Shown: positions 1,963 to 16,201 of the stretch, one piece after another | How positions within the stretch are numbered: the first letter of the stretch is position 1 | Layout of the letters: each line of letters opens with the position of its first letter | NCBI GenBank assembly: GCA_964291655.2 | Contig: OZ219802.1 | Location: 1,792,001 to 1,856,000 of the forward strand | Length of the DNA: 64,000 bases | DNA from: Chloroflexota bacterium | GTDB taxonomy: Bacteria; Chloroflexota; UBA11872; VXOZ01 | Reading direction: 5' to 3' | The notes under the pieces: generated by a model | The model's input: the letters and a program-made list of their open reading frames with translations, nothing else | The model's database searches: none | What the model was told of the DNA's origin: nothing | Program-made: the position numbers and the translations under genes

Positions 1963-3227
1963 TGTATAGACCGGGTTGATGGGTAACGCTTGTTCGGGTT
2001 GATAGGTTACACCTATAGGCATGGAGAATCTTGCAGCGGGAGGATGACCATGTCGTGGAAGGTGGAAACGCTTATGTCTGCCCGGGAAGAGTTTATTGCT
2101 CTGGCCAATAGTGGCGCGGTGAGAATGAGCGAATTGTGCGGTCGGTTCAACATCAGCCGCAAGACTGGCTACAAGTGGTTGCGGCGGTACGCGTCGGGGG
2201 GAGCGCAGAGCCTGCGTGACCGTTCGCACCGCACGCACACGTGTCCGCACCGCACGCGCCCGGCGATGGAGGAACGCATCATCGCGCTGCGTCTGGCGCA
2301 TCCTACGAAGGGCGCCCATGTGCTGCGCAGAATGCTGCAGGACCAGGGGCATACCGACGTGCCGGCCAAGAGCACCATCAATGCCATTCTCAAACGCCAT
2401 GGGCTCATCGATCCAGCCCAGAGCGCCAAGCACACGCCCCATGTGCGCTTCGAACGACCCCAGCCCAACGAGCTGTGGCAGATGGACTTCAAGGGACATT
2501 TCGTCATGCAGCAGAACCGCTGTCATCCTCTCACCCTCCTAGACGATCACTCCCGCTTCAACCTCGGGTTACAGGCCTGTGCCAACGAGCGGGGAGAGAC
2601 GGTCCAAGACCGCCTCACCGCTGTCTTTCGCCGCTACGGCTTGCCCCAGGCCATGCTCATGGACAACGGCTCTCCCTGGGGTAACGACAGTGCCCAGCCC
2701 TTCACGCCCCTCACCGTCTGGCTCATGCAGCTGGGCATCAACGTCCTGCACAGCCGACCCTACCATCCCCAGACACTCGGCAAGCTGGAACGCTTCCACC
2801 GCTCCCTCAAGAGCGAACTGCTGGCAGGGACCACCTTTACCGACCTGGACCATTGCCAGCGCGCCTTTGACACCTGGCGCCACTTCTACAACTTGGAACG
2901 CCCACACCATGCCCTCGATCTCGACACTCCCATTACCAGATACACGCCTAGTCCTCGCCCTTTCCCAGAGACCTTGCCTGCCCTCGCCTACGCTCCCGAC
3001 GACCGCGTACGCAGCGTCGATGTCTCCGGCCGCATCTCCTTCCAAGGCAGACGGCTCCGTGTGGGCAGGGCCTTCACGCACAAGCAAGTCGCCCTGCGAC
3101 CCACCCGAACGGACGGTGTCTGGGACGTGTACTTCTCGATCCAAAGAGTAAAAACCATAGACCTCAGAGCACAAAATGTGTAACCTATCTACCCGAACAT
3201 CTGTTACCTATGTCCCCGGTCTGTACA
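1963..3227 (+). mobile_element. IS481-family insertion sequence, copy A (1265 bp, mosaic, no target duplication)
   Basis: Ends TGTATAGACCGGG / CCCGGTCTGTACA with internally repeated TIR motifs; same length as copy C; flanks are inverted rather than direct repeats. Confidence 0.92.
2050..3183 (+). CDS. IS481-family DDE transposase
   Basis: MSWK start after GGGAGG; HTH, WQMDFKG, DNG, HPQTLGKLERFH, YN..RPH motifs. Confidence 0.95.
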   Translation: MSWKVETLMSAREEFIALANSGAVRMSELCGRFNISRKTGYKWLRRYASGGAQSLRDRSHRTHTCPHRTRPAMEERIIALRLAHPTKGAHVLRRMLQDQGHTDVPAKSTINAILKRHGLIDPAQSAKHTPHVRFERPQPNELWQMDFKGHFVMQQNRCHPLTLLDDHSRFNLGLQACANERGETVQDRLTAVFRRYGLPQAMLMDNGSPWGNDSAQPFTPLTVWLMQLGINVLHSRPYHPQTLGKLERFHRSLKSELLAGTTFTDLDHCQRAFDTWRHFYNLERPHHALDLDTPITRYTPSPRPFPETLPALAYAPDDRVRSVDVSGRISFQGRRLRVGRAFTHKQVALRPTRTDGVWDVYFSIQRVKTIDLRAQNV

Positions 3228-3450
3228 GGGGAGAGGGTTGGGGTGAGGGGTCCTATCTGCTTTGTAAATCGTAAAACAGGTACAGTCAATAATATTAGAG
3301 CCAATCCGGTCAAGAAGTTGCACGTGCTCAGAGCAGATTCACCGTCACCCCCGTATCACGTACGGGGCAGGCTCTAACCCTCTCCCGTCAAGGAAGAGGG
3401 AATAATCTCCCTTCCACATGGGTCTTGCAAGGGTCTCCCCCGGGAGAGGG
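3228..3450. repeat. Pair of outward-facing CCCTCTCC hairpin repeats around a ~95-bp core, followed by a GGTCTC-type element end
   Basis: GGGGAGAGGGTTGGGGTGAGGGG (3228-3250); CCGTCACCCC..TAACCCTCTCCC interrupted by CCCCGTATCACGTACGGGG; GGGTCTTGCAAGGGTCTC-CCCCG-GGAGAGGG (3420-3450). Confidence 0.75.
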
Positions 3451-5810: not shown

Positions 5811-6156
5811 TGTTCCTGTGAGCATAAGAGATATTCTACCGACCGGGGCCGCACGGTCATCAGCGGCCGGTTGACAGTGCAGACCCTCTGGTGAAGCGAG
5901 GACGCACGACATTTCCTGCGTCCTCGCTTCCATCTTCACACCCATAGAAACCGTTCGCATAGAACTCGCTGAAGCGTTAGCGCGCCCTGCTTCCAGCGGA
6001 GACCCCCGAATCGGGGCACGGCACATTCAATGCGTGGTTCTGACGGACACGCGGGACCGGGCAGAAACGTTTAAGCGTGCCACTCATCCCGGTCCACTCA
6101 CCGAAGAGTCCCCTGCCTAATCCTTGCCGGGGCGGGGAAAGCCCCTTCTCCCGGCG

Positions 6157-6295
6157 GAGACCCTTGCGCAACTCCGTCTCTCCGGCGCAAGCCGGAATCC
6201 AGAGCGCCTTTATAGCTGAAAATAGATTGATGTCAATCCATTTCGCCTCCATCCCAATCTTCCCCCTCAAAGGTGAGGGGTTATGCAAAGGTCTC
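6157..6295. mobile_element. Non-coding mini-element with GAGACC(C/T)TTGC..AAC / GTT..GCAAAGGTCTC ends, inserted in a CCCTCTCC hairpin loop
   Basis: Ends GAGACCCTTGCGCAAC and GTTATGCAAAGGTCTC; CGGCG duplicated at 6152-6156 and 6296-6300; a closely matching empty hairpin lies at 6371-6391. Confidence 0.75.
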
Positions 6296-6370
6296 CGGCG
6301 GGAGAGGGTGAGAGCCTGCCCTGTGCTCAATACAGCGGATCTACACGATACGGGGGTGAGGGGGGGAGTC

Positions 6371-6518
6371 CCCTCTCCCGGCGGGAGAGGGTTAGGGTGA
6401 GGGGGAGATTCCCGCAATCTGGGAGCTATTTCTGCCGTTATCGCACTCTTGCGTATCGGTCTTGTTGGTAAAGAGGACGGGACAAGCAGAAACCCCCTAG
6501 CCTAGCCCTCTCCCACAG
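6371..6518. repeat. Pair of outward-facing CCCTCTCC hairpin repeats with ~87-bp core
   Basis: CCCTCTCCCGGCGGGAGAGGGTTAGGGTGAGGGGG ... CCCCCTAGCCTAGCCCTCTCCC. Confidence 0.75.
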
Positions 6519-6742
6519 GAGACCTTTGCATAACCCCCGCCGCAGCGCGGGTGACCCTTCTCCCTCGACGTGTGAGGGTGAATCTCCTGAATTCTCTCCA
6601 TAGCATACCGACATTTGCTCGGCTACATCTTGACACTGCACCGGTGCAAGGGGCCACTGCAACATAAAGATCCCCTCACCCCGACCCTCTCCCCGGGGAG
6701 AGGGAGGTTTTCTCGCCTACAGGTGAGTTACGCAAAGGTCTC
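6519..6742. mobile_element. Second GAGACC...GGTCTC mini-element, carrying an intact internal hairpin repeat
   Basis: Ends GAGACCTTTGCATAAC and GTTACGCAAAGGTCTC; flanks CACAG/CCCAG (4 of 5 match); internal CCCCTCACCCCGACCCTCTCCCCGGGGAGAGGG. Confidence 0.7.
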
Positions 6743-7043
6743 CCCAGGGAGAGGGAGAATCACCTGTGCGTTACGAGAGTCTCCGCCGGAAGGGGCGAGC
6801 GCCGGCCCGCACTCGATCCGTGGAATTCCTTGAGGGAGGGGGCAATGTTCGCGCCACTGGCACGAGTTACCAAGGCATCACCCATGGGAGGAAAGCGCTT
6901 CAGCTTGGATTCGGCCGTTTGCGACTCAACCGGCGATTCCGGCCGCCCTCACAGCAACAAGGTGCAGGGGAAATAGGCCCAAGTCTCACTTCGCTCCGGC
7001 ACACGAGCTCGCGGCAGCTACCGCCGTCCACACAAGCGGTGTC

Positions 7044-11562: not shown

Positions 11563-11807
11563 CGCAACCAGAAGCATGCTTGCGCCGCCTGCAGGTGGTG
11601 CAAGCTCAGAGCTGCGGGTCTTCGGGCCCGCAGTTTTACATTACTTGGAGGTACACGACCTGAAGACACGCGACGCCGGCCGTACGATCTCTGCCGCTGC
11701 GGTACCACGAGCGGCAGCAAACTTCAGCCGGGCGGTTGCGTTCAGAATGCAGAGTATCTCTTTAGAGAGGTGAGCTCTGCATCGCAGCGGTACAAGGCGC
11801 ACGCAAG

Positions 11808-11933
11808 ACTCCCTTCCCTGGAGGCTTGTGCGTATCTTCGACCGGAGGTGCAATAGATACACCTTCCCCCTTGGGGGAGACCATTGGGTAACAAGAATCT
11901 GAGCGATATGTGTTTCTCCCTCTCCCCGGGGAG
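11808..11933. repeat. Left stack of degenerate GAGACC-type ends, each preceded by a hairpin half-site
   Basis: CCCTTCCCTG-GAGGCTTGTGCGTATC (11821), CCTTCCCCCTTGGGG-GAGACCATTGGGTAAC (11877), then CCCTCTCCCCGGGGAG. Confidence 0.55.
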
Positions 11934-12221
11934 TGTATAGACCGGGGACATGGGTAACAGTTGTTCGGGCTCATAGGTAACACCATAGAACGAGGGGGTT
12001 TTCGTAGTATGCGATGTCCTTGCCTTGAAAGTTAGATCCACTCAATATCCTTATGCACACTGTTTGTTTCTCTGGCACAAGCTGACAGGCGGAAAGTGAG
12101 TGCACTGTGTCGCCAGTCTCTTATCAAACCCGGACCAACCCAATGCTCTCGTAGGTGTCAATCAGTAAAATGTGTTACCCATGTCCCCGAACAACTGTTA
12201 CCTATGTCCCCGGTCTGTACA
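11934..12221 (+). mobile_element. 288-bp non-autonomous IS481 derivative (MITE), copy B
   Basis: TGTATAGACCGGGG...CCCCGGTCTGTACA; 5-bp duplication GGGAG (11929-33 / 12222-26); near-identical interior to 32683-32970. Confidence 0.9.
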
Positions 12222-12350
12222 GGGAGAGGGTTGGGGTGAGGGGTTCTTGCCAATCCGGTTTCCTTATCCCGTGGAACTTATGCGTACCAGAGCAGTACTG
12301 ATGATGAATGAGACTAATTGCGGAGTTTCCCCTCACCCTAGCCCTCTCCC

Positions 12351-13615
12351 TGTACAGACCGGGGACATAGGTAACAGATGTTCGGGTAGATAGGTTACAC
12401 ATTTTGTGCTCTGAGGTCTATGGTTTTTACTCTTTGGATCGAGAAGTACACGTCCCAGACACCGTCCGTTCGGGTGGGTCGCAGGGCGACTTGCTTGTGC
12501 GTGAAGGCCCTGCCCACACGGAGCCGTCTGCCTTGGAAGGAGATGCGGCCGGAGACATCGACGCTGCGTACGCGGTCGTCGGGAGCGTAGGCGAGGGCAG
12601 GCAAGGTCTCTGGGAAAGGGCGAGGACTAGGCGTGTATCTGGTAATGGGAGTGTCGAGATCGAGGGCATGGTGTGGGCGTTCCAAGTTGTAGAAGTGGCG
12701 CCAGGTGTCAAAGGCGCGCTGGCAATGGTCCAGGTCGGTAAAGGTGGTCCCTGCCAGCAGTTCGCTCTTGAGGGAGCGGTGGAAGCGTTCCAGCTTGCCG
12801 AGTGTCTGGGGATGGTAGGGTCGGCTGTGCAGGACGTTGATGCCCAGCTGCATGAGCCAGACGGTGAGGGGCGTGAAGGGCTGGGCACTGTCGTTACCCC
12901 AGGGAGAGCCGTTGTCCATGAGCATGGCCTGGGGCAAGCCGTAGCGGCGAAAGACAGCGGTGAGGCGGTCTTGGACCGTCTCTCCCCGCTCGTTGGCACA
13001 GGCCTGTAACCCGAGGTTGAAGCGGGAGTGATCGTCTAGGAGGGTGAGAGGATGACAGCGGTTCTGCTGCATGACGAAATGTCCCTTGAAGTCCATCTGC
13101 CACAGCTCGTTGGGCTGGGGTCGTTCGAAGCGCACATGGGGCGTGTGCTTGGCGCTCTGGGCTGGATCGATGAGCCCATGGCGTTTGAGAATGGCATTGA
13201 TGGTGCTCTTGGCCGGCACGTCGGTGACCCCCTGGTCCTGCAGCATCCGGCGCAGCACGTGTGCGCCTTTCTTCGGATGCGCCAGGCGCAAGGCGATGAT
13301 GCGCTCCTCCAGCGCCGGGCGCGTGCGGTGCGGACACGTGTGCGGCCGCCGCGACCGGTCGTGCAAACCGTCTTCGCCAGCTTTCGCATACCGCTCCAGC
13401 GTCTTGTACGCCGTCTTGCGACTGATCTCCAGACGGCGACACAGCTCGCTGATGTTGGCCCCTTCCATCAGTGCCAGTGCAATGAACTCCTTGCGTTCAG
13501 ACACAACCGTACTCTCCTTCCAAGGCATGGCGCTCCTCCATCTGTAAGAATCTCCATGCCTTAAGGTGTAACCTATGTGCCCGAACATGTGTAACCCATG
13601 TACCCGGTCTATACA
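12351..13615 (-). mobile_element. IS481-family insertion sequence, copy C (1265 bp)
   Basis: TGTACAGACC...GGTCTATACA ends; CTCCC duplicated at 12346-50 and 13616-20, inside hairpin CCCTCTCCC-CA-GGGAGAGGG. Confidence 0.95.
12395..13528 (-). CDS. IS481-family DDE transposase
   Basis: MPWKE start after GGAGGAG; identical to copy A from TDVPAKST to the C-terminus. Confidence 0.95.
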   Translation of the reverse strand: MPWKESTVVSERKEFIALALMEGANISELCRRLEISRKTAYKTLERYAKAGEDGLHDRSRRPHTCPHRTRPALEERIIALRLAHPKKGAHVLRRMLQDQGVTDVPAKSTINAILKRHGLIDPAQSAKHTPHVRFERPQPNELWQMDFKGHFVMQQNRCHPLTLLDDHSRFNLGLQACANERGETVQDRLTAVFRRYGLPQAMLMDNGSPWGNDSAQPFTPLTVWLMQLGINVLHSRPYHPQTLGKLERFHRSLKSELLAGTTFTDLDHCQRAFDTWRHFYNLERPHHALDLDTPITRYTPSPRPFPETLPALAYAPDDRVRSVDVSGRISFQGRRLRVGRAFTHKQVALRPTRTDGVWDVYFSIQRVKTIDLRAQNV

Positions 13616-13620
13616 CTCCC

Positions 13621-13786
13621 CAGGGAGAGGGGACTTTCCCGCCCCGGCAAGGGTTATGCAAAGGTCTCCACTGGGAGAAGGAGTAGCTCGTGCGCCTCCG
13701 GCCGGGTTCACGCAAAGGTCTCCAGTCGGAGAGGGGACATACTCGCTGCGGCTGGGTTTTCGCGAGAGTTTCCTCTGGGAGAGGGG
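13621..13786. repeat. Right stack of three GGTCTC-type ends, each followed by 5 nt + GGAGAGGG and a unique 17-22 nt segment
   Basis: Units start at 13651, 13704 and 13754; similarity to consensus falls outward. Confidence 0.75.
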
Positions 13787-13837
13787 ACCATCTCAGATTG
13801 AGCAGGGCAATGGAAGAGTCTCGGAAGGAACCAGCAA

Positions 13838-14557: not shown

Positions 14558-16115
14558 GAGGCTGTCTCAATATTTTGGTGCGGGGCACGGTGAATGGGGT
14601 GAGAAGGACAGACAGATGGCGGGTGGTATGAACAAGACGGTGCCAGTGAGAGACTCGTCCCCGGGGCGACGCTGGACTACACCCAGACCGCCACAGGGCG
14701 TGGAGGCTCTTGAGATTGAACGCGGTGGCCAGCAGGTGCCATTCGGACGTCACGTGGCTGCGGCCTCTGAGCAGGAAGCGCCTGGCACTGTGCCACTCCT
14801 TGAGCAGGCCAAAGACCGGCTCGACGATGGTACTCCGGCGGCGGTACACCTGCTTGGCAGGCGCGGTGGCCATCAACTGCCTGTGCCGTTGCAGTATTGG
14901 CTCGTAGGCGCTGATCTTTATGGAGCGGCCCCTCTGGGAGGAGGTGCAGACGCCGAAGGCCGGACAGGTTCTGCAGTCCCGGCCGTTGGCTTGGTACCGC
15001 TTGACCCGGTAGCCGTTGCTGTGGGTCAAGCGGTGCGTGTAGGTGAGCACCTTTTGCTGGGGACACAGGTAGGTGTCGGTCTCTGGACGGTAGGTGAAGT
15101 GGTCTTTATGGTAGGGGTTGCGGCGTCTGCGCTCGTGGGTCGTGGGCATCAATACCGTGTGGCCGCCGGCGTGGCACGTGGCGAGGTTGGCCCCCGAATG
15201 GTAGCCGGCGTCCGCAACGGTCACCACGTCCCGCGCGGCGTCGATGTTCTCCTGCGCCGCCTCGATCAGCGGCGCCAGGTGGGGATGGTCGTCGGCACTG
15301 GCGCTCACGTCCACGGCTGTGATCAACCTCCCCCCTGCGCCCTCGTCCGGGGACGCAAGAGGGGAGACCAGCGCCTGGGCGTTGTAGCCGGTGATGAAGC
15401 CACCCATGCCAGTCTTGAGCAGGGCCGCGTCCGCATCAGTCAGGTTCGTGTAGCGCGGCCCGTCCTCAGCCGCGACGCGGGCGAGCGCGTCGTCCACCCG
15501 CCGCCGCAGGGCCTGGGCATCGGCAAGTTCCTGCGGCAAAGTCGCTGGCGGCGCGTCGCCCCCCGTGGCGTTCTGCGCCTCCAGGTCCGCGATCGCTTGC
15601 TCGGTGCGGGACAACAGCCGCTGCAGCCCCTGCGCGTCGTGGGTATGCCGCGTCCCGGCGTTGGCCGCGATCCTGGTGCCGTCCACCGCCTGGATTGCCA
15701 ACTCCACCAGGCCGGCTCGCACCGCCGTGCGCACCGTGCGCTTGAGCAGCGTCCGCATCCGGTCGCGGTGCGCCTTGTAGAAGCGCCACAGCGTGTTGTG
15801 GTCCGGCTGCTGCATCCCCACCAGCCACAGGTACGGTACCTGATCCCGGCAGGCTGCCTCCAGCTTGCGGCTCGAGCGCACGCCGGTCATGAAGCCGTAG
15901 ACCCATACGCCCAGCAGCGCGCGCGGATGGTAGGCCCCGGCGCCACGCGGATCGCCTTGCAGGTCAATCTCCATCGCCTCCCAGGCCGCAGCATCGAGGC
16001 TGTCCACGAACGCTGCCGCAAACCTGACAGGATGGTCGTCCGGGATCAGTTCGTCCAGCGTCGGCGGCAACAGCCAGGCCTGTTCACGACTAAACGGTCT
16101 CAACGGCATCGTCAC
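14526..16115 (-). CDS. IS1182-family transposase (stop codon lies outside the TIR)
   Basis: LLPPTLDELIP.DHP, SSRKLE, PDHNTL.RF, AVDGT, ADAGY, CP..C..CP..C, YRRR..IVEPVFG.LK. Confidence 0.93.
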   Translation of the reverse strand: MTMPLRPFSREQAWLLPPTLDELIPDDHPVRFAAAFVDSLDAAAWEAMEIDLQGDPRGAGAYHPRALLGVWVYGFMTGVRSSRKLEAACRDQVPYLWLVGMQQPDHNTLWRFYKAHRDRMRTLLKRTVRTAVRAGLVELAIQAVDGTRIAANAGTRHTHDAQGLQRLLSRTEQAIADLEAQNATGGDAPPATLPQELADAQALRRRVDDALARVAAEDGPRYTNLTDADAALLKTGMGGFITGYNAQALVSPLASPDEGAGGRLITAVDVSASADDHPHLAPLIEAAQENIDAARDVVTVADAGYHSGANLATCHAGGHTVLMPTTHERRRRNPYHKDHFTYRPETDTYLCPQQKVLTYTHRLTHSNGYRVKRYQANGRDCRTCPAFGVCTSSQRGRSIKISAYEPILQRHRQLMATAPAKQVYRRRSTIVEPVFGLLKEWHSARRFLLRGRSHVTSEWHLLATAFNLKSLHALWRSGCSPASPRGRVSHWHRLVHTTRHLSVLLTPFTVPRTKILRQPPKEREQFLHN

Positions 16116-16201
16116 TACCTCTCTACAAACTATCCCACCACCTCACCTTGCTTCTCTTCACACCAGTATATATCCAGTAGATCTATTTTTGAGACACCCT
16201 C
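14558..16201 (-). mobile_element. IS1182-family insertion sequence (1644 bp)
   Basis: TIRs GAGGCTGTCTCAA / TTGAGACACCCTC; TTGG duplicated at 14554-57 and 16202-05, i.e. the loop of CCCTCTCC-TTGG-GGAGAGGG. Confidence 0.92.

Follow-up and report, generated by a model that had tools for sequence, protein, structure and literature searches.

A probable layered transposon nest on a REP-like hairpin between infB and rbfA of a Chloroflexota genome

The intergenic spacer between infB and rbfA of an uncultured Chloroflexota bacterium harbors a periodic stack of short repeats, which is very probably a layered transposon nest built on a hairpin resembling repetitive extragenic palindromic (REP) elements, without a memory of the kind provided by clustered regularly interspaced short palindromic repeats (CRISPR). 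The corresponding genome, termed G000, comprises two contigs (C1 and C2; 3.47 Mb, 97.55% complete), and the window analyzed is a stretch of 64,000 nucleotides (C2:1792001-1856000), to which all feature coordinates refer unless they are prefixed with C1 or C2. The spacer extends from the infB stop (11562) to the rbfA start (13838). A first-pass annotation of the window, made from the letters alone, had described this region as a mirror-symmetric chronological record of successive insertions. In the course of events favored here, each insertion would bring new hairpins into the spacer and the next ones would fall inside earlier elements, while older ends would be shoved outward and decay there. 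Inversion between hairpin arms, recombination between copies and tandem duplication would reshuffle the layers, so that the stack would be polar on average without constituting a faithful record, and the locus as a whole would be devoid of array-like function.

The hairpin in question has the form CCCTCTCC-loop-GGAGAGGG with an 8-bp stem. An intact copy elsewhere in the window yields a DNA folding energy of -7.6 to -8.2 kcal/mol, and 311 loose matches are present in the genome versus about 26 per shuffled Mb. Being short, extragenic, palindromic and abundant, the hairpin corresponds to the definition of REP elements and bacterial interspersed mosaic elements (BIMEs). It was shown to be the near-exclusive target of the insertion sequence (IS) IS481a and a 288-bp miniature inverted-repeat transposable element (MITE), which both duplicate 5-6 bp, as well as of ISX, which duplicates 6 bp. 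Among the 24 copies of IS481a and the 43 copies of its 287-289-bp MITE, 57 of 67 feature a 5-6-bp target duplication, and the hairpin is found in 65 of the 67 reconstructed empty sites. ISX, which occurs in 25 copies and features the domains DUF772, DDE_Tnp_1_6 and DDE_Tnp_1, is placed between CCCTCTCC and GGAGAGG in all 23 pairable copies, with exact 6-bp duplications in 12 of them.

At the focal locus, setting the 288-bp MITE and IS481a aside leaves flanks that form two hairpins of this type (H1 and H2; Table 1). Both insertions had been recognized as hairpin-borne in the first-pass annotation, and closer analysis agrees: the MITE has 50-nt inverted ends (90% complementary) and sits between CCCTCTCCCC and GGGAGAGGG with GGGAG on each side, and IS481a has 53-nt inverted ends (85% complementary) with CTCCC on each side. 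The open reading frame (ORF) of IS481a carries the domains rve (4e-17), rve_3, HTH_32 and LZ_Tnp_IS481 (28.7 bits versus a cut-off of 22.2), which together with the terminal inverted repeats and the short target duplication assigns the element to the IS481 family, whose duplications range from 4 to 15 bp. The 288-bp element is small, non-coding and multi-copy, displays terminal inverted repeats and duplications, and possesses ends 81-86% identical to those of the autonomous IS481a, as is typical of a MITE; the genome contains 6 further copies that match the focal one at 100% identity. A second member of the IS481 family, IS481b, is present in 4 identical copies (C2:1906013-1907300 and three other sites) and likewise inserts in the hairpin arm. 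Its ends are related to those of IS481a, and the ends of both elements carry at positions 6-10 the AGACC that stands at the tip of the IS5-type MITE ends described below.

The 50-nt units that flank these insertions were shown to be terminal modules of MITEs whose ends, AGACCTTTGC, coincide with the ends of an IS5-family IS of 1.2 kb. In the window, the unit motif occurs 7 times, 0.02 occurrences being expected and none of 100 shuffles reaching 7. On the left of the nest, the two decayed GAGACC-type ends with a period of 56 nt were found as previously described (starts 11822 and 11878), and three units occupy 13624-13785 on the right, spaced by 54 and 50 nt. A loose scan of the genome recovered 120 copies of the terminus plus the adjoining arm, 115 of which are located on C2. 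Their spread is uneven: C1 (0.83 Mb) holds 5 of the 120 ends and 33 of the 311 hairpins, and the first 0.8 Mb of C2 has few.

Facing left and right ends delimit elements of 96, 137, about 232 and about 256 bp (77 facing pairs), which carry one or two copies of the CCCTCTCC-loop-GGAGAGGG hairpin. Directly outside AGACC...GGTCT, direct repeats of at least 7 bp (7-10 bp) are present in 32 of the 77 pairs, as opposed to 2.7 pairs on average and at most 10 when partners were shuffled (2000 shuffles). These duplications measure 7 bp (n=25), 8 bp (n=2), 9 bp (n=4) or 10 bp (n=1), and 31 of the 32 are of the form CC..GG; 20 of them are flanked by both hairpin arms, another 6 adjoin a single exact arm, and the remaining 6 are found in ordinary DNA. 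The MITEs therefore insert at CC-N3-6-GG, chiefly at the top of the hairpin. Facing pairs with direct repeats, and ends that match an autonomous IS of related genomes, identify the GAGACC-type elements as MITEs in the usual sense. The duplication consists of CC, the loop and GG at any loop length (7-10 bp), which might mean, on a more tentative reading, that the IS5-type transposase reads both arms or an extruded hairpin instead of a fixed spacing. Insertion of half-units with a duplication of their own was rejected (10 of 239 units versus 7.3 expected from shuffles), as was the idea that the core with GGGTGAGGG ends forms a MITE of its own (duplications in 0 of 67 pairs). The same applies to insertion into the weak hairpins formed where a unit terminus meets the next arm; such a junction has a stem of only 5 bp (-3.7 kcal/mol), and a single tail-to-head junction exists in the genome.

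The autonomous partner of these MITEs was encountered in relatives. A motif search across the class revealed three equally spaced end pairs in genome G017, with a 326-aa transposase ORF between AGACCTTTGC termini (DDE_Tnp_1, 2.7e-31; DUF772, 7.2e-23). This combination of DDE_Tnp_1 and DUF772 between inverted ends places the element in the IS5 family. Homologues with 62-64% identity are present in the genus relatives G003, G004, G023, G010 and G006, where the same termini and hairpin-top duplications occur; the ORFs of relatives comprise 322-326 aa, and the one in G004 is intact, in a genome that also displays a 10-bp hairpin-top duplication. Using the IS5-family transposase as query gave 0 matches in the focal genome, and by the measure of this query the MITEs there are therefore orphans. 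Across the class, 57 of 98 genomes, distributed over three of six families, contain the terminus-plus-arm motif, and a reversed control pattern was found in none. Owing to its occurrence in at least three families of one class, the system is thus a long-lived feature of these genomes.

The supposition that elements insert into the hairpins of earlier elements is borne out by the target-site duplications and by a clean three-layer nest at C1:690281-690909, in which all target duplications are intact. Its outer layer is a 96-bp-type MITE in unique DNA (7-bp duplication), the central hairpin of which contains a 232-bp MITE (10-bp duplication), whose hairpin in turn contains a 287-bp MITE (5-bp duplication). 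Genome-wide, an end of IS481a, the 288-bp MITE or ISX is situated inside 29 of the 77 MITE pairs.

For the focal locus, comparison of infB-rbfA spacers among relatives shows layered growth. The R4 relic and a lone hairpin, common to four species, are the oldest components, followed by the G unit and L2; L1, the core and the B and F units were added later, and the 288-bp MITE and IS481a are the youngest layers, present in the focal genome only. The spacers of G006, G001, G005, G004, G002 and G009 measure about 200-275 nt and are free of these elements, and G010 has almost no spacer. In G003, the lone hairpin precedes the R4 relic and contains a different MITE with ISX-like ends, while G012 possesses the G unit and R4, together with a different inner element that has a direct repeat common to its two ends. 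A comparison for missing inner layers had been proposed at the outset, and such layers are indeed missing in a relative. The closest relative, G008 (RbfA 99% identical), features L2, L1, the core, B, F and G and lacks the 288-bp MITE and IS481a, the 288-bp MITE family being present elsewhere in its genome. In addition, a metagenome contig of run X5 (the X5 contig) lacks precisely the stretches 11929-12221 (293 nt) and 12346-13615 (1270 nt), each gap corresponding to one element plus one duplication copy, i.e. an exact empty site. An independent 137-bp MITE of the same family, flanked by a 9-bp duplication, resides at the rbfA ribosome-binding region of G011 (L020); the native GAAGGGAG at this site resembles the hairpin arm and may have seeded the colonization of the spacer.

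The outward decay of stacked ends noted in the first-pass annotation was likewise recovered. The right stack of the focal locus shows 1, 3, 7 and 10 mismatches of 27 from the inside outward. Genome-wide, 270 seeds were extended into chains of units at intervals of 44-62 nt, each extension being kept at up to 10 of 27 mismatches (the 1% quantile of the background is 11). By inspection, many first units of the raw chains were ends of ISX-type elements; 20 rows of such ends were dropped, which left 73 chains with at least two units. Among the 104 steps of these filtered chains, 69 are worse outward, 7 equal and 28 better (p=4e-5), and the last unit compares with the first as worse in 53 chains, equal in 3 and better in 17 (p=2e-5). 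The mean number of mismatches by rank amounts to 4.2, 6.1, 6.2, 8.1, 9.5 and 9.0, and several of the leftover exceptions are hairpins or IS ends mis-scored as units. The same polarity, reported for positions 6725-6795, is visible in the sequence.

The stacks have also been rearranged. A 96-bp MITE at C2:1402368-1402463, situated in unique DNA and flanked by a near-perfect 7-bp duplication, has two arms identical to the bodies of R1 and R2, the B and F units, and the focal site of G008 contains an intact B/F element (94% identity over 96 nt). Relative to this intact element, the B arm is reversed in the focal genome and the X5 contig; in a further contig, X9, B is inverted and abuts the L1 arm. 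The differing orientation of the B arm among G000/X5, G008 and X9 therefore indicates that units were flipped between hairpin arms. More tentatively, such arm-to-arm inversions might flip 50-nt half-elements and turn two stacked ends into a new mobile chimera, of which the 96-bp B'/F element, intact in G008, apparently transposed to C2:1402368 and with one arm flipped at the focal locus, may be an example. A single inversion between G000 and G008 was rejected as a path: the orientation of B fits, the three loops are permuted, and no derivation by hand was found with fewer than three inversions. Besides flipping, amplification has occurred in relatives. G023 carries six near-identical left units with one loop sequence, a single duplication pair being shared with one right unit, and G007 contains a similar homogeneous stack with identical bodies and loops; both are local tandem amplifications.

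Several observations weigh against the interpretation as a layered nest. Among the 77 facing pairs, 45 lack a duplication of at least 7 bp, and no left/right pair at the focal locus has an exactly matching duplication, the best cases being partial matches, in line with the poor correspondence of left and right 5-mers conceded at the outset. Left and right stack depths, counted after removal of leading units with at least 8 mismatches, are uncorrelated (rho -0.04, p=0.75, 77 loci), and combinations of 4:1 and 5:1 occur. The raw chains, before ISX-type ends were dropped, show 69 steps worse outward, 7 equal and 48 better of 124 (Wilcoxon p=0.11). The path among the arrangements of G000, G008 and X9 requires more than one inversion, and since G008 is a 70-contig assembly and the X9 contig ends inside a repeat, an assembly error is possible there. 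Finally, no MITE transposase that would account for recent mobility of the MITEs was found in the focal genome (0 matches).

In a stricter version of nesting, every stacked end equals one layer, ends pair by rank and the distance from the center reflects age. This version can draw on the intact three-layer case on C1, on the genome-wide outward decay, on the agreement between the phylogenetic depth of the focal layers and their order, and on outer-rank ends, where 10 of 111 combinations have a direct repeat of 7 bp or more in common, versus 0 of 48 in a wrong-geometry control. The same 10 of 111 speak against the proposed rank pairing as a rule, rank-2 pairs matching exactly in just 1 of 9 combinations. 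The uncorrelated depths, with many stacks being one-sided, the origin of R1 and R2 as arms of one MITE, one of them inverted at the focal locus, and the six near-identical left units with a single duplication pair in G023 already contradict strict nesting as a complete account, assembly errors aside. It is therefore an unlikely explanation, and a clean mirror-symmetric chronological record is not supported. Still less probable is the notion that slippage or unequal exchange duplicated a 50-nt unit bounded by GGAGAGGG arms in tandem, followed by divergence. The homogeneous stacks of G023 and G007 speak for it, and 5 of 90 adjacent pairs in the focal genome are mutual best matches (e.g. at C2:1949786 and C2:2336531). 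However, stack neighbors in this genome do not resemble each other more closely than randomly chosen units do (mean percentile 0.53, Wilcoxon p=0.34, 90 pairs), and neighboring units of the focal locus score 3 to 4.5, as opposed to 15.5 to 27 for their best matches elsewhere. Moreover, tandem duplication alone predicts neither the outward decay nor the missing inner layers in relatives. In the focal genome, tandem amplification is minor; given the amplified stacks of relatives, insertion as the sole builder of stacks is not supported.

A third reading, a REP/BIME-type array spread by a REP-associated tyrosine transposase (RAYT), or a repeat-spacer array with captured DNA or small RNAs, is highly improbable. 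It would accommodate the short, abundant extragenic palindrome, and the genome does encode one RAYT (82.2 bits, cut-off 80). This gene, however, is flanked by a different GC-rich palindrome, with three tandem copies upstream and one downstream, and thus forms a separate repeat system; the RAYT was rejected as mobilizer because its flanking repeat differs from the nest hairpin. Furthermore, the nest elements display target duplications and terminal inverted repeats, features that Y1 transposition is not known to generate, and the units are only 64-72% alike over 58 nt. The segments of 17-22 nt between the right units, which had been taken for unique, are so within the locus alone: of 324 units genome-wide, 33, 22 and 16 contain sequences related to the three focal segments (above 99.9% of the null). 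Of the two origins considered for them, element-specific subterminal sequence is correct and captured DNA is not, the segments being subterminal sequences of MITE subfamilies. With spacers that recur across loci and no match to Cas1 (PF01867) in the 97.55%-complete genome (control matches in 7 of 14 genomes), a CRISPR-like meaning falls away as well. No Rfam family reaches its threshold at the locus; a match to MIR856 (68.6 bits versus a gathering score of 297) was dismissed, as it is due to the long inverted repeat.

The layered nest is a variation on ISs that target REP palindromes and on MITEs that nest in one another. IS1397, ISKpn1, ISPpu9/10, ISRm22 and others target REP/BIME palindromes (Tobes and Pareja 2006, PMC1525189); that work names the families IS3, IS110, IS4, IS256 and IS5 without mention of IS481, and ascribes mismatched duplications to recombination between copies. 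As in these cases, a single short extragenic palindrome receives insertions from several unrelated IS families at a set point, and the duplications lie at its axis. Unlike in these cases, the palindrome of the nest is carried and multiplied by MITEs that target it, three transposase types including an IS481-family member converge on one hairpin, the IS5-type duplication of 7-10 bp tracks the loop length, and the host is an uncultured member of the Chloroflexota. Plant MITEs insert into MITEs, some families into themselves, and multimers arise by independent insertions (Jiang and Wessler 2001, as cited in PMC5172404); the present nest differs in being bacterial, in that a defined hairpin explains the preference, and in that its layers were further flipped and amplified. 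With BIMEs and REPINs (REP doublets forming hairpins) and their RAYTs, as outlined in PMC3333891 and PMC2817692, it has in common a mosaic of short intergenic palindromes with alternating orientation and variable linkers, but it differs by terminal inverted repeats, target duplications and DDE-type IS5-family ends, and the sole RAYT of the focal genome is flanked by another repeat.

The likeness to CRISPR arrays is one of appearance only, comprising the period of about 50 nt, the alternation of conserved and variable segments, and the polarity. In contrast to CRISPR arrays, the repeats are divergent, the 17-22-nt "spacers" recur genome-wide, mirror copies exist and Cas1, the adaptation gene looked for, was not found in the genome; near-identical repeats with unique spacers are not present. 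Pneumococcal BOX elements are modular small repeats in which the boxB module of about 45 nt is tandemly amplified in variable number, and amplification of one small module in tandem is a trait shared with the nests; no link is known between BOX and a hairpin targeted by several IS families. A non-exhaustive literature search, in which the motif itself was not used as query, returned no prior description of a hairpin-targeting MITE nest.

Taken as a layered nest, the locus illustrates in detail, for a bacterium, how a short palindrome comes to serve several transposon families as a common safe haven, and how layered nests are built by MITEs that carry their own target. It also advises caution, given that polar, periodic, array-like structures can form without adaptive-immunity machinery. 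More tentatively, and with considerable doubt, the hairpin might be viewed as a self-propagating landing pad, in which the MITE family carries its own target and IS5-, IS481- and IS1182-type transposases are channeled into the same nests. With a duplication that tracks the loop, it becomes possible to test directly whether an IS5-family transposase chooses its target by structure.

Table 1. Features of the nest and related elements in the focal genome (+ and -, strand).
Feature	Position	Strand	Remark
Outermost left half-hairpin (decayed arm and loop CTGG)	11809..11821		Orthologous to left arm of lone hairpin in G003
L2, decayed left-end unit of IS5-derived MITE	11822..11870	-	Terminus clearer in G008
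L1, left-end unit (AGACC...), ends in left arm of hairpin H1	11878..11927	-	
GGGAG, left copy of 5-bp target duplication of 288-bp MITE	11929..11933		Right copy 12222-12226
288-bp MITE with IS481a-like ends	11934..12221		Absent at site in G008 and X5 contig
Core, 129 bp, 22-nt inverted ends (GGGAGAGGG-NNN-GGGTGAGGGG type)	12222..12350		Supplies inner arms of hairpins H1 and H2
CTCCC, left copy of 5-bp target duplication of IS481a	12346..12350		Right copy 13616-13620
IS481a, IS481-family IS, 1265 bp	12351..13615	-	Transposase ORF ~12395-13531, minus strand
R1 (B unit): hairpin arm, subterminal body and terminus GCAAAGGTCT	13623..13669	+	One arm of 96-bp MITE; inverted in G008 and X9 contig
R2 (F unit): second arm of the 96-bp MITE of R1	13674..13723	+	
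R3 (G unit): older right-end unit	13728..13773	+	Common to G008 and G012
R4: hairpin arm and strongly decayed unit, extends to rbfA ribosome-binding region	13778..13835	+	Common to G008, G003 and G012
ISX, IS1182-like IS, 1642 bp, in another hairpin copy directly 3' of rbfA, outside nest	14559..16200	-	6-bp duplication CTTGGG
RAYT gene (NF047646, 82.2 bits), only one in genome	C2:2523380-2524060 (L046 1399-2079)	-	

Further nests of the same elements, with several cores and units in both orientations, are found in the window at 3000-3450 and 6140-6800; in the former, an end of IS481a lies near 3226, and at about 6158-6294 a 137-bp MITE is flanked by a 7-bp duplication. The resemblance between the focal core and the core near 3300 holds for the 22-nt arm and two short motifs but not for the remainder, the 85-nt interior of the focal core being single-copy in the genome. 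At 11608-11637, a terminator-like hairpin with a T run follows infB and is kept in all genus relatives examined; rbfA expression must therefore start downstream of this terminator, across the nest. In G007 (L023), the infB-rbfA spacer of about 2.6 kb contains low-GC sequence with an ORF unrelated to these elements.

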